From Phoronis australis (Eukaryota; Animalia; Phoronida), in assembly GCA_002633005.1 (NCBI GenBank), contig NMRA01000435.1, positions 1 to 64,000 on the forward strand: DNA of 64,000 nt. Reading direction: 5' to 3'. A program made the translations under genes and the position numbers. This document shows, piece after piece, positions 35,201 through 49,000 of the stretch. The notes under the pieces were generated by a model. That model was not told the origin of the DNA. It worked only from the letters and a program-made list of their open reading frames with translations, and did not search any database. Every line of letters starts with the position of its first letter. Within the stretch, counting starts at the first letter, position 1.

Positions 35201-38200
35201 CACAAGACTTCATAGGCTGTCACTTTATGCACCCACAGTAGTATGGCCATCAGCCAACTGGGAACAGACACTACATGGAGTCACTAGTTGATGCAGAGTG
35301 GCTTTAAGTAAGACAAACCAACATCAGTCACAATTTAATGAGCGGAGTGAACACTGACCTAGTGACCTAATTAAAAGGGCGTGTTCACGAGTCTGTCCGC
35401 CAGCATCAAATCCTGTTTCAAACTCTCCGCGCGTGGCGTTCACAACCAAGATGGCTACATCAGCCTCAGCAGCACCTAGTGGATGAGCAACATTTAATAA
35501 CATACAACCGAAACATTTAAATTTTTGAGTAAATGTCTGTCAACATTCATACCTGCACTAAGTAGTCCTACACCAATGTTTAAAATGTGACAACAGCATT
35601 TCAACACGAGACGTTTTTCAAACATAAAATAGATTTCTCAAACCGCAATTCAGCATTTGTCCAGGACTTAGAAATATAAACTCCTGAATGCATAGCCTTG
35701 CCCTAAACTTAGAAGCTGTTATATGCAAGTTCCTGTATGCTAGTTTATGTCTACTCCAACAGGTGTCAGTAGCGCCATCCTAGGCTGATCTCACTTTTGC
35801 ATAGGTAGAAAAGTGCATTGAATGATTGACCTAGTTTTCGAAGTGACAAACCTCTGGGATGATACAGAAAAGTGAAGAATGATAAATTGTGCATCCACGA
35901 ACATCATATTATATCTGCCCAATGTGCCAATTTCCTGGTGTCAACATTGCAAATCACAACAAAAGAACGTTGTTAGCAAAAGAATAGCCACTGACAATAC
36001 AATAATTTTGACATAAAATAACAATCACCGCAGCACCTTTGAATTTGCAGCATGATAAATGTCTGGCATTGTGGGTAAATGTGGCACTGTGGGTAAATAT
36101 GGCACTGTGGGTAAATATGGCATTGTAGGTAAATATGGCATTGTGGGTAAATATGGTATTGTGGGTAAATATGGCATTGTGGGTAAATATGGTATTGTGG
36201 GTAAATATCAATGAATATAGCGTGGTGGTATAGTAAGCCAGGACGGTCCTGTTACAATAAACAGAAACCAGAGTCTCAGGTCAGTTCACTCACCAGTTAT
36301 CATGTTAGGGATGAAGTCCTTGTGCCCAGGTGCGTCCAACAGATTGACCACCCTGTGTTCAGTTTCAAACCGAGTCTGGGCAACGTCCATGGTTACACCT
36401 CGGGCCCTGCGAAAGAAAAAAATAAAGTGATCTCAAGAGACCTGCTTAAGTAAGTGAACTGCACCTATTTGACATTTTCAGATTTACTTCGGTAAACAAG
36501 TTTTTGCAGGTTCTAACATACACATCTTCACAACCGACATTTCTAGTCCAGGGGGATTGCAGAAAATTTTCCTCAAACGGGAATTCCGAATAATCTATAA
36601 AAGCAAAAAAATGAGAAGTATGACGAGGATTACCCTTGGGGCAGTCATTATCCATGGATACTTCTACGAAGAAATTTTGTGAATTCATAATTATACCATT
36701 AACTCTCAGAATTCAACATTCCGAGTAGTCGGACAACCACATACGCAACCTTTCTCACATAACCCTAGGAATTCTTACATTGCACTACCATAAGCCTGAG
36801 TAATCCCCCTAAACTTTCCATGGCGTTATAGGACACACTCCTGACGTGTTTACGTCTCACCTCTCCTCCTCTGTTTCATCAAGTACCCATGCATAGGCAA
36901 AGGAGGCCTTGCCTAGCTTCTTGGACTCCTGTTCATATTTATGCATGGTTCGCTTGTTGACGCAGCCAATCTGGTAGAGCACGTGGCCCATCAGTGTGCT
37001 CTTGCCAGCGTCTACATGACCTGCAGGAAGCATACACACAGGTGATTATCAATAACTAGTGAACCTGCAGGTTAACACAGGTTAAAACACCACCCTAAAT
37101 GTTACACATCACTGGATACTGAATAAGCTCGCATTCAACACATTTGTAGTGCAGAAAACGACTACTTTGTGATAAACTGACTACTGTGATCGTGGCAATG
37201 GTCACTTTCAAGAGTCCAGGATTTTGAGAACCAGTTTGATGCCTGCTATTCAGTGGAAAAAAATGGTTCTCAAAACGTGATCCCTGTAAGTGACTGTTAC
37301 AGTGGTCAGTACAAAGTCACTTTGTTACAATAATTTATAGGTCATTTAATTTGAAAATTTGCTTTGTAATACAACTCCATATTTTTAATAAGTTTGAAGT
37401 CAAACTCCAACCTCTGAACAATCCGTTGTCATCCAGATACAAGAGATGTATCCCACAATAGATTTAAACATAACACAACCTCATAAATTCATACCTACCT
37501 ATTATAACTAAATTAATTAGCTCCTTCCCCTTTTCTTCCTTCCGTTTTTCATAAACATGTTGCACATTGAACTTTTCTCGTTTCCTGAAAGAGAAAGTAA
37601 CAACTCCATGAACGTGGGAGTTAAAAGTACTCACCAGAGTCTACTAGTCAATAATAACACACAATGTACCACACTAATAAATACAATTCGTCAAGCAATA
37701 CAGGCCAAGTGCTACCTTAGAGATATTTAAAGACAAAAAATATATTGCAGTTGAAAGAGGCTGTAATAAATGTGTTATTCGGATGCACAGCTGTTGACCA
37801 GAAAATTAGTCGCAAAATGTTCTTTGTTTTGTCAACTTTTCATAAACACATTGAAATATGAAGTACGTAGATGAATGCAACTTTTTGCTTTAAGTTTGTT
37901 TTAAACACGTAAAAAGCTTTTAACATTTTGGTTACAAAAGTTGGCAGCAGTAGTATACCATGAGATTGAAATTTAGCTTCTAACTTAATTTAGTTAAGAA
38001 ATAGTATGCATTACACTATCAACACCTACTTTGCACTTCTGTTGACGACACCGCTGTCCTCTCCCCCACTCTGAGGTGTGGAAGGTCGACTCTGCGGGGT
38101 TGACGGCCTACTCCCCGACCCTTCAGAGGGCCACAGGTTTCTTTTGTAATCCCTCTTAGGGGTGCTTGGTCGACTGTCATCGCTTGACTCCGCCTCATCT

Positions 38201-41200
38201 TGACCACTAGGTGGAGCAAGCTGCTGGGTACCATCCTGGGATGATGTTTTAAAGCCACACACCTTATTTTCGTCATTCACAAAAGTTTTTTGTGGCGTTG
38301 GTGGCTGTACGGTTGTGATGACAGGCGCTAACACCGTTTTGGCCGGGGGTGTCTTAAATTGGTGGTGTTGGGGTGGGTCTCCTAAAACGATCTTAGCCTC
38401 TACAGGCTTAGTCGCACTATCTCCTGGAAAGTACACTTGTTTGTAAAGCAAATTCAAACAGTTTCTAACACTCCCCTATTAAATCCTGAGTACAGATTAT
38501 CGTTCATATTAACTGCAAAAATTTTCATTTACAATGTACAATATCATGAAAAATATCCACTTAGAGATTAACCGGATTATCTATGAAAATAATAGGTATC
38601 TCTATTGAAAACACACAGTGGAAAATAACTCCAATTTCTTGCATGGTTGGACAGACAGACAGACGGACACTGACAGACAGACAAACAGACAGACAGATGG
38701 AATGAAGGTCACTGAGTAAAGGAGTGACTAACACATGGTGAAGTAGATTCTTCATAGTCTCCTGAAGTCATGTGTCCCATTGTACGCGAGCTTGCGAATA
38801 TTTTTAACAGACACACATAGTTTGTGACACAGCAGTATTCTCATTATTGACAGTGACATCCGCTCAATACAACGCTATATCACAGGATTAGGCCAAAGAA
38901 AACAGCAAAATTGTTTCTGGTCTGTGCAATACTCATTTTGAAACCTGTGCCTCGGTGCTTAAGGAAAGAAAAACGACTGCACATTACTTCAATATCATAC
39001 TTTCAGTAAGTATCATACAGTCATAGAGATAACAGACACTAAAATACGGAGGTAACCCACGAATAGTTCTCATAATTGGTGTGAGTGATGTCCAAATCTT
39101 CCATTCCAGAGGTTCGAGTTGAAACCAGAATCTTACAAGAAAGCAGTCAGTAGAACACTTCACTCCTCGCAAAACTTTCCCTAACTTCAATTCGAAACAG
39201 TAGTTTTTGCAAATTACACTCAACAATCCTCAGTACGTCATTATCGCTAAGCAAAACACCGGACTACTATGTCTTCACAGCACTCTGTTGCGGATTTAAC
39301 TTACTATTTCCATCTCTAGTGAAGGCAGCTTTTTGCCTTTCTCTATTAACATCATCTGGCGATGGTGTCGTAAAGTCAAACGGCACAACTGCCTGATATA
39401 CAGAGTCTAGACCAACATCACGAACCGACTGACAAGCGAAGGAAAACCTCTTGTATCTCACTTTACGATTCTTAGATTCACGTCTGCTCCACTGATTACA
39501 CACGAGTACGTCTGCTAGAGTACTAGGTTGACCGGCAAACCTTTCCACAGAAATGGAATTAACGGCAAGATCAAACAGATGAGTTTGTTGCTTCTCATTG
39601 TTTACCGAGACCAATGACTCATTGTCGACATCATGTGGTAACACGGTAACGCACAGGCCGGTTTTGAGAGTAGTTTTGGGTTTTGTTTCCAACTGACCAC
39701 CAGGAGACATTGACAGGGCTTTGAGTTTTGTCAGATCGATTAGCGTCTTGGTGCTATCTTCCTTGTTTCTCAGTCGAGAATTATTTGTAATGGGAAACTG
39801 GCAAGTCACTTCGGCGAGACTTTCTCGGGGTATTCGCGGTGGGTTTGATATTTTACTTTCTCCAAGTTGTTTATTGAGATCTGCCAGGGCAGACCGTTGC
39901 TCAACTGGTACATTAGTGTTTGACAGTCTATCGCTCGAGCTGTCCGTCTGCTTTTGCACAGACGATAAGCCAACATGCTTTTCCATGTGTCCTTTTGCCA
40001 ATGACACCAGCGATGGTGATCCACTTCCCATCGAAGATGGCTTTTGTGTCTTTGAATGAAGCTGGGCAAGAGAAGTTAGAGAGGTACTAAAGGTGCTTCG
40101 TGCAGTCGGTGAACTGAGCAAATTTGGCGGATTATGTCCTGAGGTTTGGAGCCCACAAACATTACCACTTTTGGTTGTCTGTTGGTGGCACTGGGCCAGT
40201 GCAGTCAGACTCGAGGTGGTTTTCTTCCCTGTCTGACTAATGGTAGAATGATGGATGCTACCCATACGAGCAGGCGGGCCAACTGAATTTGGTGAATTTT
40301 GCGGCGAGTCACTGGAATTCTGAAGTCCTAATAAACTTCTGCCCCCAACTGCCCGTTGATGAGACTGCGCCAAAGCGGACAGACTCGAAGCTGCTTTCTT
40401 TGTGGGGAGACTGCCTACCGTTCTCAAAGGGCTCTCAAATTTAAAAGACAGAGAAACGTTTGGTACATGAGAGGCTGCCCTTTTATCATGAAGTGTTGTC
40501 ACAGAAACATTTATATCCTTTGAGTTTAAATTGTGAGTGGATTCTAGCGTATTAAAACTGTTCTGTTTATTAAGACCGAAATCAAACTGAAATTTGCATT
40601 CATCTTCTTACCTTACCGATGCCAAAGAAATGATGCAGAGCAAGTCGAGGTAATCACATGATGGAGGTGGGAGTCGATGTGACGGAACAGCCAATCCAAC
40701 AGAAGCAGCCACCACCAACATCCACAGGGGACACAATCACCAAGCAAAGAGGAAAGAGATATTGAAAGGCAACATATTAGAATGCTTTGAAATTATTAAA
40801 CCATGTAATCAGTATGGTGATTATGCTGATAGAAACTCATCACAAAAGGGAAGAAGAGACAAAATGTTTGGTTTTGATCATAGTTGCTTAAATACTTTAC
40901 AACTTGGGTTGTATTGTAACTTACGACAAACACAGCAAAGAAATGTCGTAACTAAAAGAAATGTTCATGGTGAGTTCGACTTACAATCATTTTCAGCACT
41001 TTACGTGTAAAAAAACCGGTGGCAAAAATTTTTAATATGGCAATTAACAATGCCACACACTAAAATATAGCTGAAATGTGACTAACTTCAGCAAAACTTG
41101 AATATTTGAGATGTACCCCCACAACTGAATCTAATCAACTGCACACTCAATATGACAGAGAAAAACCTGCATTTCACCCTGTTTAGCTGGCTAAAAAACG

Positions 41201-44200
41201 AAAAATCGAATTCCGCCTTCTATTCTCATCAAATCAGAGTCATAATATTTCTCGCTGTGATTTGATTTCCGTTACCAAAAAAAACATCGAAACCATCAGC
41301 AATTCAAGAACACGTTTCAGTTTATTAGGGATGACCCCACCTTCAAATTACTCATTCAAAAATGGTGCAACTCAGTTGGCACGCTCATTTGACAGAAATT
41401 CAAGGTTGGAAGTGCATGGTAATATTCTAAATCCCAAAGTTGTGGTTAAGTTTTCAACATTGACAGCTAAACAGCAGTGAGGAGCCCCTTTAACATGACA
41501 TAAAAACATCAGACTACGCCTACCTTTCATTCTCCTTCTGTTCCTAGGTTCTCGCTGTGGCTTTGGAGCATCTGAAACCATGATTTCTGGTGTATAGAAA
41601 ATTTCAGTTAGGAAGCACAAGGACAGGTATCACAATTTACCCATGATGCATCTTCATCTACAAAGCTAACCGCAGTACTTGACCCAATTTAATGGCGTGT
41701 TTATTATAGATTTTGAATATATCCATAAACTCGCAGATAATACTTCAAAAAATCATCAAACAAATGCTCAAAATCTGTAACATTTAAAAGCCCATATGTA
41801 ATGATTTTTATGCCCTAAAAACATGTAGAATATGTAAACCCACAATAGATGTCAGTTCTGTCTTTCAACTTCTAGTCAAGGCAACACAGTGCCATCTTCC
41901 ACACTCACCCTGCAGTCTTAGAATACAGTCTAGTGACCTTTCTAAGTCAAAATCGTTATGTATAATTGTGTCGATAAGCACGTGGTCAGGTGTGGTGTCG
42001 CCGGTGATGTTGCGAATCCCTTCAAGGCAAGAGTTGAGCCGAGCTGATGTGGAAAAATGGATATGAAATCATCATCAGTCAATATCAAAAGGCTGTGAAT
42101 AATGGAAGTTTATCTGATCTCTTTTATGATATCTACAAACTGCAAACCATGCTTGAAATAGACTAAACTGTTCTTAATATTTATCTTTGTGTAAACATTT
42201 ACCAAAATGTCACTTGTTACCCACATTGTGTTCTAAATAAGTGAAGAATTACTGTATTTATGTCTTGTACTGTACAAGTCCTTACAAACCCGTCAATCAC
42301 CAGACATATACAATCAATTAAAGATACATAATTTTCATATCCCCACCTAGTTACTGCCACTGTTCACCACTATTCAACAGTGCAATAAGCACATAAGTAG
42401 TCTCAGCTTTGTCTGTCAGAGCATTCTGGAAGAGGCAGTTCCAAATGCCACAATTTGACCTCAACTCTCCGTTTTTATCTTGCACCGCAGTGCACTTATT
42501 TGACAATAACAGCACTTTTAATTTTTTGACTCTTTTTAAGTCAGAATGTTCAACAAGTTAAAGACCATGCTCTGCGCATAAACTGATCTACCACGATAAG
42601 ACAACCTATCAAGCCTGAAGCAATAATGTAATTTTTTTCCAAACCCTGCAGAAATGACCAATAAACTAAGTAAGGAACTGGACAAGATTGGCTTTATAAT
42701 GGCAAGTAGTCCAAATCAAAGCTTAATTGTCGTAAAGCAAGCTGAGTTTATAGCAGTTTTAACACACATCTCTGTACAATGCAACTAACCTTCATCGATG
42801 TCAGACAGCTGTGGTCGTTTGTAATTTGTAGAGTCACACAAAGGATCGTTGCTGGCCTCGTCGTCACTATCGTTAGGTTCCGCCTCCTCGGGGATGTCTT
42901 CCTCTGTGATGTACGTGGCCAAAGACGGTTGACTGTCTCTGTTGAACGTGAACTGTGCAGCTAGAACGAGTGCTCATTGAATGAATATCTTGATTTCACG
43001 ATGGTAAAATCTCACATATTTCCGACACAAATAATTCATCTTTTTGTAGGCTTATAACATTGTTGTATTTATTACTATTTATTTATTAATGTAATATTTA
43101 CATTGAGGATAGCCCCATCAGTTCACACTGCTTTCCATGGGAGCCCTCAGTAAAAACATACAGACAGCAAGACAAACAGACAGAATTACAAAATGAAAGA
43201 CAATATCTAAATAATCAATAAAGAATAAGAAATTAACATGAAAACGATGAAATAAAATAAAAAATAAATTATGATAAATAGAAGATAAAGAAAGTAAGAC
43301 AAAAGATGATTAATTAAAATATAAATATAAATAATTAAAAACAGACAATAAATAATCAATAAAAGTAAGACATAACATGCATATATTGTGAAAGCCACAA
43401 TGTTTCAAAACATAGTACGGAGGTAGTAATGGTACAGAACTTGATAACGATATTAAACTATTTGATGCTGCTTCACATGTACCAAAAAAGAACAGATAAG
43501 TTTCATTTGTCTACTATAGAGTCCTTAGATTCCACTGTATGAAGGCTACTGGAAGACACACACACACACGTGTATGTATACCTGCTAAAATTGACTTGAG
43601 AAGCAAGAAATGAATCTGAAGGATCTGGCAGCAGGCCTTTATCCAGGATTTCGAAAATAGGGTGTACAAAATGGAGTTCCAATACTCCAGGGCGTCCATG
43701 ATTCAGACGCGTAACCCCCCACCCCCGCAATCCCCTCAAACACACAGATTTTTTTACAAAAAATGCACAGACCAAAGTTTTTACATCTAAGTTTACAAAA
43801 CATCCTTCTGTAGTGAGCANATAACATGCATATATTGTGAAAGCCACAATGTTTCAAAACATAGTACGGAGGTAGTAATGGTACAGAACTTGATAACGAT
43901 ATTAAACTATTTGATGCTGCTTCACATGTACCAAAAAAGAACAGATAAGTTTCATTTGTCTACTATAAAGTCCTTAGATTCCACTGTATGAAGGCTACTG
44001 GAAGACACACACACACGTGTATGTATACCTGCTAAAATTGACTTGAGAAGCAAGAAATGAATCTGAAGGATCTGGCAGCAGGCCTTTATCCAGGATTTCG
44101 AAAATAGGGTGTCCAAAATGGGGTTCCAATACTCCAGGACGTCCATGATTCAGACGCGTAACCCCCCACCCCCGCAATCCCCTCAAACACACAGATTTTT

Positions 44201-45669
44201 TTACAAAAAATGCACAGACCAAAGTTTTTACATCTAAGTTTACAAAACATCCTTCTGTAGTGAGCATTTTTCTAAAAAAAAACTGTAGACCAAGACTTTT
44301 ACAATGCTATCAACCAAGTGTGAGCATAGCAACATAGTATGTACTCTGTATATACAATGTATATTTCTTCCTGCTTTGAAAAAAGAGCCACCACTGTGAG
44401 TCTTCATAGGCTTCCTAGTAATCATTACAATGTGTGTGTCCAAACTTGAAAGGTTCATATTGATAGTGGGCGTCCATATGATACATTGTCCATATTAGTG
44501 CTAGGGCGTCCATTTGGATGCCCAGGACATACGCTGCATAAAGGCCTGTCTGGCAGTATGGTCAAGTGGGATTCAGAAAGCAACCCGCAATCTTTGAACT
44601 GGGATACACAGACTCAAACACCACTCTGGTGATATTAGACAAACTAATTGGCATTGAAAATCTCTACTGCAGAGTTGTCCTCTTAACTTTCCTATCAATA
44701 ACAGGGATTTAGAAATACAGAAACAATTTAAAAGTGATGAACATCATTTGAAAAATTACTATGCAGTCCTCATCGAATGACAATCCATAACACAATACAT
44801 TGTTTTTTTTATGACAAAATGGACCAGAAAGCATTCCTCAATATTCAATTTCGTCTTAAGCTAACATTGGCAATAATTGAACTGTTGCTCGAGGTTTAAA
44901 TTGTTTTTTCCTTACTTTACCAACAAAGAGAGAGAATACACAAACCAGTGCCAGGCGATACACAGTAATCGTCCTCCACAGAGTGACCATATGAGAAGTC
45001 ATCGTAACCATCATACTCTGAAATGGAAAAGACATCTTTTGAATTCAACGCAAACTGTACAACAACATTTTAATGTATTTACTATAACATTACGAACAGC
45101 TAGGACAAAGTTCAATGTGATATTATTCTTACTGTTGATAATTCTGGTTCTAGGCATAAGTAATGTACAAAACTGGATAATTAAAAGATTAGATAACAGT
45201 CGGATAGATGGGTCCCTGATTTAAAAGTGATTTTAGAACCAGTTACTGCCACTGAATAATGTCAGTTAATCAGCAGTAGTAACTGGTTCTCAAATCAGAG
45301 AGCCATCTATTGGACAAGCAACATCATGGATACCATCAAACATCATGTCAACCTGGTGCCGTCTGGAAAGAATGCAAAATATTCTGTGACTTTGGTAGTG
45401 AAACTGGTGAAAACAGTAGTCTGACTGTCAAATTGGCTTTCAGGTAACTGGCTTGAGTAGTTTTGATACCAGCGTCCGATAAGGGACTGATGACGTGACG
45501 TCTGATCTCGAATTACCTGTCTTGATTATATAGAGAATGATCTGTTGAACAGATGAAGAACGAATTTATGTTGTTTTCGGATTCGTAATTTCAAGTTGTA
45601 TTCATGAACTCTATTGGAGAACCTACCGTCTTCATAATTCATCCCACGAACGTTTCTGTGCCTAGACAT
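30498..45669 (-). CDS. HBS1L: HBS1-like translational GTPase (partner of Pelota/Dom34), 742 aa, 17 coding exons
   Basis: Exons 45669-45627, 45017-44946, 42960-42790, 42043-41909, 41571-41524, 38423-38030, 37584-37499, 37020-36861, 36406-36294, 35475-35359, 34473-34240, 33702-33529, 32686-32591, 32041-31938, 31451-31351, 31008-30864, 30533-30498. All are phase-compatible (2229 nt). HBS1 N-terminus [12 protein letters not shown]...[20 protein letters not shown] motifs [27 protein letters not shown]-terminal LGRFMLR...TIAAGLVTE. The last exon ([11 protein letters not shown]) is the least certain. Confidence 0.96.
32100..32210. repeat. (CAG)n microsatellite in an HBS1L intron
   Basis: Run of agc triplets with cat/tac interruptions. 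Confidence 0.95.
34520..34760. repeat. Dispersed DNA-transposon-like repeat (inverted relative at ~47700-48050)
   Basis: atatggccgacaagtgagatt (~34550) matches the reverse complement of aatttctcttgtccgccatat (~47933). Inverted pair ttatttagcaca/tgtgctaaataa. Confidence 0.45.
36064..36208. repeat. 18-bp minisatellite, ~8 copies
   Basis: Unit tggcattgtgggtaaata. Confidence 0.95.
39267..40606 (-). CDS. HBS1L: Alternative terminal exon of HBS1L encoding a SKI7-like/HBS1LV3 isoform (exosome-SKI complex adaptor); ~602 aa with exons 1-5
   Basis: Stop-free frame 40606-39267 within intron 5, in phase with exon 5 if the AG at 40608-07 or 40605-04 is used. It ends [26 protein letters not shown], matching the recalled HBS1LV3/SKI7 motif PFDFxxxSPDDIV...[20 protein letters not shown] resembles the upstream AxPSxFA motif. 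The exact acceptor is uncertain. Confidence 0.88.
44079..44548 (+). mobile_element. hAT-type MITE (family A, copy 2)
   Basis: TIRs caggcctttat/ataaaggcctg. Perfect 8-bp TSD tctggcag at 44071-44078 and 44549-44556. A partial duplicate at ~43631-43819 is probably an assembly overlap. Confidence 0.92.
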
Positions 45670-46016
45670 TCTTTCGGTTTCTAGCAGCACCTTATTTGAA
45701 GAAATAACACTGAGTTTACAGCACTTTCTTTCTCACAAAGGTGAACTTCGGCAACTTGACCGCCATAATGATGACAGAAAAGAAAGCCAGCTGTGCTTCA
45801 AATGCTTTCACTTCGTAAAAATCCAATTTTTCCCCATCCCACAAGTTCGGAGTCTAAAATCGTTATATCGGAATTAAATTTAATATCATAGAATATAAAT
45901 GGCTGTAAATGAAAGTTGTATGCTAGATATTTGTCAATTGCAACCCTACTGGTATACGAACATAAAAAGTCGCATTAAAGCTGAACTGATGAAAGCGACC
46001 TCTACAACTTGCAACG
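45670..46016. promoter_or_regulatory. Bidirectional promoter shared by HBS1L and PREB
   Basis: The two divergent ATGs are separated by only 347 bp. Confidence 0.75.
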
Positions 46017-49000
46017 ATGGCACCCAAAAATGGGATAACGCTAGCAGAAGTCAATACACCCCTTTATGCCATACGTATGCTTGGCGACCGCCATGTACTT
46101 GTTGCTGGTGGTGGTGGCCAGGCGAAAACGGGTGTTCAGAATCTTGTGGTAAGACNCCGGACAAAATGTTGGGCCCCCCCCTAGTGATATCCTAGATCCG
46201 CCACTGTGAATAACGATGCAGTGTAACAAATGCTACCGAACTGGTTGAATATAGTGGTCCCTGATTTAGAGAACCAGATTCTTCCACTGAATAACAAGCC
46301 TATTGTTCAGTGATTGCCCAGGAGTACTAGGTGATTACCTGGTTATGAGCCGAGGCAAATCAGAGACCACCTTTTCCGACCAGTACCCATGCTGCATTAT
46401 TAAACAGTCAACCTTCTCAATTGGCATGAAAACTCTGCCTTGAGTCATTCATCTACTTAATGTACTCCAATCTGCTATACCCAAATCGAGAGCAGAGTAG
46501 TTTTGACCTTCAATGCTGAAAACAAGCTCAGCTGTTTTGTATTGTGAATATGAAACTGTCTGAAGTTTTATTGGCTTCTTTACTCGAATATGGCAACTCA
46601 AAATTTACAAAGAATTAAAAAAACACTTATTTTTTATTTTTGTTTACAGTAAATACATCATTCTTCTTCAGGGCCAAGTGGAAACAATACAGTCTAAGGA
46701 AAAATATGATAATCAATAATATAATAATTTAGGGTTATGAAATTTCCTTTAAAAATTGAAAGTCTGGCAAATTGTCACTTGAAAATTAAACAAAACATAA
46801 CTGGACTTTATTTCTATTAATAAAGTAGCCATCACAAGAAATACTGTTTTATTCAAGCGATCTGTTTCTGTTTCAGGAAGTTTTTGAGCTGAAGAAGACA
46901 GATGAAGGCTGTGTTTCCAACAGTGTGTGTAGACATGACACGGGTTCTATGGCCATAATGAATCTGTCCGTAATGACAGAAGGTCAGAGTAAATACGTCA
47001 TAGCTGCGGGAATGGACGAAAAGTGTCAGTTATACATGATGAGGCAAAGAGTGGTTGACCCATCACCAGGTAGTTAGTTCTCAATGCTGCTCAAAGCATT
47101 ATTTCTTATGTAGCTGCTGCTAAAATACAAAATAAAAGAAGATAATATATATGTAAATGTTGAACTGGCATGGAAATGTAGATGACAAACAATTTTAAGT
47201 CTGGTCTGCACGCCACCTAGTGAGGATAAGTCTGAAAAGATTTCCCGGTCGGGGTGCAGAAATCTTTTCAGACTGATAGTATTTAGGTTGTTTGATGTGA
47301 CCAACAGGTGGCATGCAGAGCAGACTTAATGTTAAAAGAATTCCAAACCCAGTTTCGCCTGTTAACAGTTATTAATCAACTTTCCATTCAGCTCTAAAAC
47401 AAAATAATGCTCAGTAAGCCTCGTCTGCTATATTCTGTATTTTAATTTGCAGAATCAGAAACAAAAGTGCGTCGAAGGAAGGGTCACCTGACGGATGCCC
47501 GTGACAACCAAAGTGCTCAGCAGATGTCGACAACTTTTTCACTGGACTCTATCGGCGATACTCAGACAGACTTTCACGAAGACGGTGGATTCCAAAAAAA
47601 TGTTGTATTCAGTCCTTCCAAAGAGTTCTTGCTAACTGGTGGCGCTGACGGCTTCATTAGGGCATGGAAGGTCTGTACATTAGATATCATGCATGAATAT
47701 GACTAGGTAGAATCAAAATCGTCAAGTTCAAACTAGAATACTGTAATATTTCACCAATTTCTGATAAAAATAATTGACAAAATTACATTTTTTCATTTTT
47801 CAAGGTCTTCCAACATTATGAATGCTCACATTTTTGTCGAAATATTTTCTGTTGGTAGCTATGGTACATATCTTGAACACTGTAATGCATTGATTTGATG
47901 CTGCGTATCTTTATGAAAAAAATGATTAAATAAATTTCTCTTGTCCGCCATATCGGTTTTTGAATTAGTAAAACTTTATTGTAAGTCAAATTTATTGTAG
48001 GGAAGCTAGGCATGAAACCAATCTACAAACTACACAGTAATTTTGTGAGTAACAACTGGCAATGAATTGTTATGAGAAGACCTTTTACTTGTATTTTAGA
48101 TAAAATAAATCAGTCACCCACAGTCACAGTCTATCGTTCATTAACTAAAAATTCTCATCTCATTTGGTAAATTTTATGATAACTAATATAAAATTAATCA
48201 GCATTATTGTTTATTTATTATCAAAGCTATTAGGGTAGAGATTTTCATTTTCAAAAATAAAAATCCATTTTAGCAGGCTGAAAATTCTGTTTTTTTCTGT
48301 TTTGTGAACTGGCAAATTCCGTTTTACTATCTCAAAATGCCAGTTAGCAGAAGAATGGCTTGGGATTTCTCCTTTTTTGTAGTTGAAAAACTAGAAATAT
48401 TATGCGCTATGGTACCTTCTACTGAAATATGTAAATTTTGTTCGAATGCTCTAATTCCTGAAAGAAGTCCTTTGTTGCGGAAATTGGGGATCTCTATTTG
48501 AGACGGCATCCTAACTTTTTAACAGACATTGCCTTCTCTTACAGTTTCCTAGTTTAGAAATGATGTATGAAGTTGAAGCTCACTCAAATGAAATTGACGA
48601 CATGGATATTTCTCCCAGTGGGTCTAAAGTAAGTAACCCAGTTGTTGAACCACTCTGGAAGTACGTTTTTCTCTTTGCTATTCATTTAAGCATGATTTTT
48701 GTTTGTTAACTTTCCTGTCTTTATTTGTTCAATATTTTTTCATCTCTTCATATATATTTTTCCTCTTTTAATAGGATTTCCTCTTTTTTGGTTTCTATTT
48801 CCCCCGTATTTGATTTCCAGTTTCTTCTTTTTCATTCCTTTGTTGTTATTGTTTTGACTTAATTCACACAAAAAAAACAATTCTTGCAGTTAATTTTTAC
48901 AATAACACAAAAATTATTTCTATCATGTCAACCTTTTCATTTGTAGAGCGATATGTCAGCTTGAAAATTTTCCTCTTTTTGTCATTGGTCATCACAAGCC

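Follow-up and report, generated by a model that had tools for sequence, protein, structure and literature searches.

In many eukaryotes, a single gene gives rise both to HBS1, a ribosome rescue factor, and to SKI7, the bridge between the exosome and SKI, and the ratio between the two is developmentally controlled; in zebrafish eggs, for instance, ski7 stands more than 10-fold above hbs1l (PMC7924785, available text). That both proteins arise by alternative splicing is already known from the accessible parts of PMC5389692, PMC7924785, PMC8075583, PMC6143672 and PMC3597508. The HBS1L locus considered here, contained in a window of 64,000 nucleotides (the whole stretch of DNA that was analysed), raises the question of which element in the pre-mRNA sets the choice. 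A possible answer comes from an eight-letter overlap, AAGGTAAG, at the 5' edge of the SKI7-specific exon, a motif that is real, conserved and partly supported by RNA. The reading favoured here, to which we assign a probability of about one half, is that this overlap is a recursive splice switch, in which the second AG (AG2) leads to SKI7, and the first AG (AG1) together with the donor leads to HBS1 in two steps. Such a switch would likely set the amounts of two quality-control proteins, and the question is directly testable: besides a conserved element of 8 nt, the locus offers an upstream block and precise predictions for junctions and lariats.

Among the titles and abstract openings searched, a scope outside which most subscription papers lie, so that a prior description is possible, no account of a cis-control of the HBS1/SKI7 choice was found, nor any paper joining Ski7, Hbs1 and recursive splicing. 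This agrees with a reading made from the sequence alone, to which no description of the mechanism for these two proteins was known. The supplements of PMC10156609, PMC6224609 and PMC1431707, files that may be partial or use identifiers without gene names, contain 0 occurrences of HBS1L.

The HBS1L gene and its isoforms

The gene lies on the minus strand. A domain search placed HBS1_N in exon 4 and GTP_EFTU further downstream, with E 3.7e-06 (PF08938) for the upstream HBS1_N exons and 1.6e-08 and 1.5e-07 (PF00009) for the downstream GTPase exons. The parts that matter for the choice are these:

41524..41571, minus strand: exon 5, 48 nt, ending in GAAAG (ATGAAAG), phase 1; from read joints 41571/41909 and 41523/38422 and from translation
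40612..41523, minus strand: upstream part of intron 5, 912 nt of a whole intron of 3.1 kb; contains unspliced sense reads
39267..40606, minus strand: coding part of the SKI7-specific exon, with SKI7-like and Patch-4-like motifs; from read depth and protein match
39299..39304, minus strand: internal donor GTAAGT in the SKI7 exon; 2, 5 and 0 reads join 39305 to exon 6
38030..38423, minus strand: exon 6, the common acceptor for three donors (41523, 40611 and 39304); from read joints

Exon 5 is common to all isoforms, and the SKI7 exon that follows is both skipped (33 reads) and entered (5-7 reads). Between the 446-codon ORF (40607-39267) and human HBS1L isoform 2 (SKI7; PDB 9g8m_E) there is a match with E 2.8e-08, over a stretch that spans the SKI7-like and Patch-4-like motifs. 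The arrangement is that of human HBS1LV3, zebrafish ski7 and Arabidopsis At5g10630, namely one gene with shared HBS1_N exons and a SKI7-specific exon, carrying the same two motifs, placed before the GTPase exons. The available text of the corresponding reports (PMC5389692, PMC7924785, PMC6143672) describes isoforms and no cis-element setting the choice, whereas the SKI7 acceptor of the present gene lies within a conserved donor.

Two further features of the gene may be recorded. Intron 2 contains, at about 43400-44300, a tandem-repeat block of several hundred bases that includes an N and may be an assembly duplication. The start of HBS1L stands head-to-head with a plus-strand gene beginning MAPKNG, whose first exon is about 300 nt away (45668-46200); this neighbour looks like SEC12/PREB and may be that gene.

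The SKI7 acceptor sits inside a donor

From 40620 to 40601 the minus strand reads ATCGGT AAG GTAAG AAG ATG, preceded by ggc, with the motif AAG-GTAAG-AAG at 40614-40604; AG1 occupies 40613-12, the GT 40611-10, AG2 40608-07 and the third AG (AG3) 40605-04. The motif and the zone before it comprise the following elements:

40614..40784, minus strand: AG-free zone, 171 nt; from a count of AG-to-AG gaps
40776..40780, minus strand: CTAAT, predicted to be a distant branch point (A at 40777) and lying 170 nt before AG2; from sequence match and conservation
40742..40771, minus strand: conserved TGCC block, then polypyrimidine tract; from cross-lineage alignment
40612..40614, minus strand: AAG containing AG1; these letters form the exon side of the donor and a candidate zero-length-exon acceptor; AAG in 7/7 motif lineages, acceptor use in 0/7 reads
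40607..40611, minus strand: GTAAG, a 5' splice site that ends in AG2, the SKI7 acceptor; donor use from an X1 contig, acceptor use from 7/7 reads
40604..40605, minus strand: AG3, in frame, unused in reads and not conserved in the cross-lineage alignment

Joining exon 5 to AG1 leads to a stop after 22 further codons, and AG2, AG3 and a TAG at 40545-44 are all in frame with the 446-codon ORF. In its letters, in the positions of the three AGs and in these frames, the sequence-only reading described the motif correctly. It had also held that the joining of exon 5 recreates a strong donor; the donor is indeed strong, fitting the consensus at 7/9 positions versus 6/9 for the donor of exon 5 itself, but nothing is recreated, for AAG/GTAAGA is already present in the pre-mRNA before any splicing. 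Taken by itself, AGGTAAG is no rarity: the window has 9 copies, against about 6 expected. AG1 is an AAG, as against CAG or TAG in five other HBS1L acceptors scored, and the 171-nt zone ranks second in length among all 7147 AG-to-AG gaps counted over the two strands of the window; when the bases of the zone were shuffled 20000 times, 62 of the shuffles were devoid of AG, and the gaps at six other HBS1L acceptors scored measure 10-47 nt. A stable RNA fold over 40590-40790 gave no signal (z 0.41). A coding micro-exon or an alternative N-terminus in the spacer was considered and ruled out, the lineages sharing neither frame nor start codon. Two further GTAAGT donor-like hexamers stand at 40984 and 40924 (minus strand) in the upstream part of intron 5, with no read joint listed for them.

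The RNA data consisted of three raw-read runs with the same species label (X2-X4, 18-19% of each run), of low depth and unspecified library selection, and one contig set (X1). The direct junction of exon 5 to exon 6, corresponding to HBS1, was found in 12, 12 and 9 reads of the three runs and in an X1 contig. In the junction count, exon 5 was joined to 40606, that is, at AG2, by 4, 1 and 0 reads, and partly fitting reads numbered 6 in X2, all ending at 40609 with exon 5 sequence, and 1 in X3. Entry into the SKI7 exon took place at AG2 in 7/7 junction reads, and at AG1, AG3 or 40545 in 0/7, in what is a small sample from low-depth libraries. The earlier suggestion that both AG2 and AG3 commit the RNA to SKI7 thus stands for AG2, no part being shown for AG3, and the TAG near 40545, put forward as another conceivable acceptor, is not the one used.

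Use of the donor was observed in X1, where a 128-nt contig joins 40712-40612 to exon 6, the GT at 40611 serving as donor and the upstream intron being unspliced. The SKI7 acceptor is thereby shown to sit inside a donor used in one contig, 5 nt from its cut, and since they are only 5 nt apart, use of the donor and use of AG2 exclude each other. The depth of this contig is 26.8, versus 53.3 for the X1 contig with the direct exon 5-exon 6 junction. Its exon 6 side measures 26 letters, below the 31-letter bridging rule, and the direct X1 junction has the same 26-letter side, as would be expected where two paths ending in AAG converge. The 40612-to-exon 6 junction had 0 raw reads in X2-X4, versus 33 for the direct junction, and a 5' end of the donor-using RNA was looked for in these data and not found.

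The upstream part of intron 5 contains scattered unspliced sense reads (about 40890-41120 in X2 and about 40600-40726 in X3) and a second X1 contig, at 40817-40972, of depth 13.2; bins wholly within neighbouring introns have a depth of 0. Short dispersed repeats at 41163-41300, 41451, 42221-42254 and 38925-38944 draw reads from elsewhere on both strands, and the intronic depth in those bins is therefore inflated.

Conservation in other animals

An alignment of 20 SKI7 C-termini (that of the window and 19 of 45 proteins) was used as query and returned 29 loci from metagenome contigs. In 8 of the 29 (L001, L002, L011, L012, L013, L021, L026 and L027), AAGGTAAG marks the 5' border of the SKI7 ORF to the letter, in the same register, and in each of these it is the single copy on that strand. 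Since L011/L012 (99%) and L013/L021 (91%) are close pairs, the eight loci represent six further lineages, so that the conservation in relatives on which the sequence-only reading had partly staked its proposal is found, at a motif site kept in 7 lineages including the window. The SKI7 exons of these lineages, that of the window among them, align at about 25-32% identity where long alignments exist. A stop in the motif context occurs in 12/17742 cases including 9 positives, and at 3 of about 17,700 stop triplets without them; chance is ruled out because the motif is kept in register in other animals.

The conserved arrangement extends beyond the eight letters. In 5/5 readable lineages, YTNAY just before TGCC, then a pyrimidine tract, opens an AG-free spacer of 65-171 nt (171 in the window, 103 in L002, 114 in L011/12, 65 in L001 and 73 in L026), and the letter at position -3 is A in 7/7 lineages. 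In L001, L002 and L012, which are all 3 loci with exon 5 traced, entry at AG2 keeps the frame and entry at AG1 does not, and a spliced Ruditapes protein reads RSQ-ELDDE, which matches the AG2 entry of L011/L012. Upstream HBS1 exons were found in L001, L002, L011 and L012, the other four positive loci holding at most 442 nt upstream, and the upstream part of the intron measures 159 nt in L001 versus 912 nt in the window. As read from these alignments, the overlap arrangement is shown to have been under long selection. A tandem GTAAG GTAAG at 40616-40607 (minus strand) was also noticed, which places a second donor-like site 5 nt upstream; the tandem recurs in L001, L002 and L013/L021, making 4/7 lineages, and use of the second site was not seen.

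One group of 17 loci (L004-L006, L008-L010, L014-L018, L020, L022-L025 and L028) lacks the motif; these loci have a short SKI7 ORF starting MIKSTFS and ordinary predicted acceptors (15 CAG, 2 TAG) in varying frame to the ATG. No HBS1 N-terminal exon was found within up to 3.4 kb upstream of these loci, and the group may possibly be a separately started, stand-alone SKI7. Nor was the motif found at the ORF edge of L003 and L019; L007 is truncated on the 5' side, and L029 seems spurious. In a tree built from 101 columns, most of which stayed without resolution, six sampled MIKSTFS loci formed one clade (97/94), and L002 and L011 fell weakly with Ruditapes (88/86); by this weak support and their named neighbours, L002 and L011 look bivalve-like. 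Identities from the spliced query of the tree analysis are valid for exons 3-5 only, its first 22 residues being out of frame.

The SKI7 exon also has an exit of its own. The donor at 39304 turns it into a 1302-nt cassette with the frame kept, which yields a third isoform carrying the SKI7 motifs together with the GTPase (7 reads). The accessible part of PMC6143672 describes such a fusion for plants and fungi and not for human SKI7, and leaves open when metazoan SKI7 lost its GTPase, a question on which the fused isoform made here bears. The donor is in phase 1 and follows the beginning of the Patch-4 motif by 70-76 nt. Donor-like phase-1 sites were noted at the same place in L001 (about 4257) and L013/L021 (about 1761-1766), and in L001 the predicted exon 6 acceptor lies only about 55 nt beyond the SKI7 stop; no such site follows Patch 4 in L002, L011/12, L026 or L027. 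Weak database searches, covering 11 long candidates, 44 representatives (2 spurious) and 7 matches near P0004, returned no fused SKI7-GTPase protein. In the protein tails, a Gly present in 32/43 proteins, and followed by E/K/R/N in 22, might have signalled a conserved donor downstream of Patch 4; it was dropped as evidence, because the Gly codon is GGA in L002 and L011.

Modes of action and known systems

In the recursive reading, the distant branch point, 65-170 nt upstream, would commit the RNA to step 1 without an AG, and the spliceosome would then scan to two equal AAGs, 5 nt apart, which might suit a balanced step-2 choice. Entry at AG2 would give SKI7, and splicing from the donor would take the SKI7 exon out, in either of two orders. 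In the 5'-first order, joining at AG1 would create a zero-length exon, and the resulting exon 5/GTAAG would be re-spliced to exon 6; in the 3'-first order, the donor would be spliced first, giving spacer-AAG/exon 6, and the same branch point would then join exon 5 to AG1. The X1 contig fits the 3'-first order, the downstream intron being out first. Mature mRNA cannot reveal recursion, because the product of both orders is identical to that of direct exon 5-exon 6 splicing. The exon 5-to-AG1 (41524/40611) intermediate was met in 0/7 entry reads from these low-depth libraries of unspecified selection, a count that does not refute AG1 use, since an AG1 product left without re-splicing runs into an early stop and might then be degraded. 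The two-step switch is unproven, as neither this intermediate nor a lariat was seen. The ratchet at AG1 proposed from the sequence is therefore borne out in one half, the joining of the 40611 donor to exon 6 in one contig, and that contig shows the opposite order; the switch is partly supported, its 5'-first step being neither shown nor excluded.

A separate argument concerns the letter at -3. Acceptors decrease in strength from CAG and TAG through AAG to GAG, and U1 pairs with C at -3. A C would thus give better U1 pairing and a G the best silencing of AG1, so that the fixed A suggests a tuned acceptor; a pure donor would be expected to drift to C or G, and AG1 may on this ground be an acceptor as well. 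Several points speak against recursion, besides the 0/7 count and the single contig with its short exon 6 side: donor use reaches about half the depth of the mature junction, which is much for an intermediate that should be short-lived and would suit a stable non-productive isoform equally well; AG1 is an AAG, unlike the five other acceptors scored; once the donor had been spliced first, a TAG 7 nt inside exon 6 might win over AG1; the intron is short, its upstream part measuring 159-912 nt; and the motif is missing in the MIKSTFS group and was not found in L003 and L019.

Three other explanations were considered, the first two of which can coexist with recursion. The donor may serve to make a non-productive isoform, in which the spacer is either the end of a retained intron or a poison exon that cannot be combined with the SKI7 exon, AG1 never acting as an acceptor; nuclear retention or nonsense-mediated decay would then lower both proteins. 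Donor use was seen only in the form of the spacer-exon 6 RNA, the abundance of this RNA in X1 and its absence from X2-X4 resemble those of a regulated isoform, every frame of the spacer plus exon 6 hits a premature stop, and the second X1 contig and the intronic sense reads fit retention. However, neither an upstream acceptor nor a frame is conserved, no exon 5-to-spacer joint is listed, the 159 nt of the whole upstream intron in L001 leave little space for a cassette, and the invariant A at -3 is left unexplained; we regard this explanation as unlikely.

It is likewise unlikely that GTAAG is mainly a binding element for U1 snRNP, with splicing there a leak, since X1 shows catalytic use at high relative depth and a pure U1 site need not retain the preceding AAG. 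Bound U1 would assist recognition of the distant branch point over a pseudo-exon of 65-170 nt that has no AG, block AG2, or suppress SKI7 polyadenylation. Consistent with this, the tract-to-donor spacing is exon-sized in all readable lineages, the three raw-read runs show no donor use, the second donor-like GTAAG 5 nt upstream is present in the 4/7 lineages named above, and AGGT sites can enhance a partner site (PMC10809524, available text). An incidental motif, AGGTAAG not being rare, or a spacer acting as alternative first exon, given that the ends of the X1 contig (40712) and the X3 unspliced reads (about 40726) lie close together and 40750-40799 is uncovered in every run, is hardly credible in view of in-register conservation in 7 lineages, which already refutes chance, and of a spacer without conserved in-frame ATG followed by exons 6-7 without Met before the GTPase G1 motif.

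Extended to its history, the recursive switch would be an ancient invertebrate device: a short intron would be spliced recursively at a zero-length exon, and this would be the regulated route that decides HBS1 versus SKI7, by means of a distant branch point and a pair of AAGs separated by 5 nt, of which the first is erased by re-splicing and the second starts the SKI7 exon; we advance this wider proposal tentatively. With recursive sites (Drosophila Ubx, Bx and kuz, and vertebrate RS-exons; PMC8605326, in its available part), the element shares the juxtaposed AG/GT and the competing downstream donor, and EPB41L5, where a recursive site skips an alternative terminal exon by re-splicing (10.1101/159350, accessible text), is a precedent. 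Among the marks of such sites, juxtaposed AG/GT with a strong donor, joining of that donor to the downstream exon (one X1 contig) and conservation (7 lineages) are found here; the typical context, a long intron and a pyrimidine-AG with an adjacent tract, is not. Unlike the classic ratchet points of that same part of PMC8605326, the site lies in a short 3.1-kb intron, has AAG instead of pyrimidine-AG, a tract 65-170 nt away and a distant branch point, and the expressed exon uses the second AG, inside the donor, not the ratchet AG. If recursive, it would be a case of deeply conserved regulatory recursive splicing in a short intron, where the necessity of the process is debated (10.1101/159350, accessible text).

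As in dual-specificity and distal exonic recursive sites (PMC10809524 and PMC10156609, as far as their text is available), one short sequence is both a 5' site for the upstream RNA and a 3' site for the downstream exon, the two uses being mutually exclusive; in contrast to the one shared AG/GT cut of dual-specificity sites, the used donor and the used acceptor are offset by 5 nt, and in contrast to both classes, the site is kept across deeply diverged animals. The element works like recursive, dual-specificity and distal exonic sites, as a candidate and not an established member of these classes.

The remaining resemblance is to exons with distant branch points, such as PTB exon 11 and GABBR1 exon 23 (PMC1431707, available portion), which likewise are alternative exons with a long AG-free zone that opens with the branch point and the tract. 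In that class, the first AG is sought by scanning in step 2, and there is competition between AGs less than 12 nt apart (same portion of PMC1431707). Unlike those exons, the first AG here is out of frame and is followed by a donor, and mature RNA shows the second AG only. An AG-free zone of at least 100 nt with predicted branch point and tract is present in the window, L002 and L011/12, and is shorter in L001 and L026.
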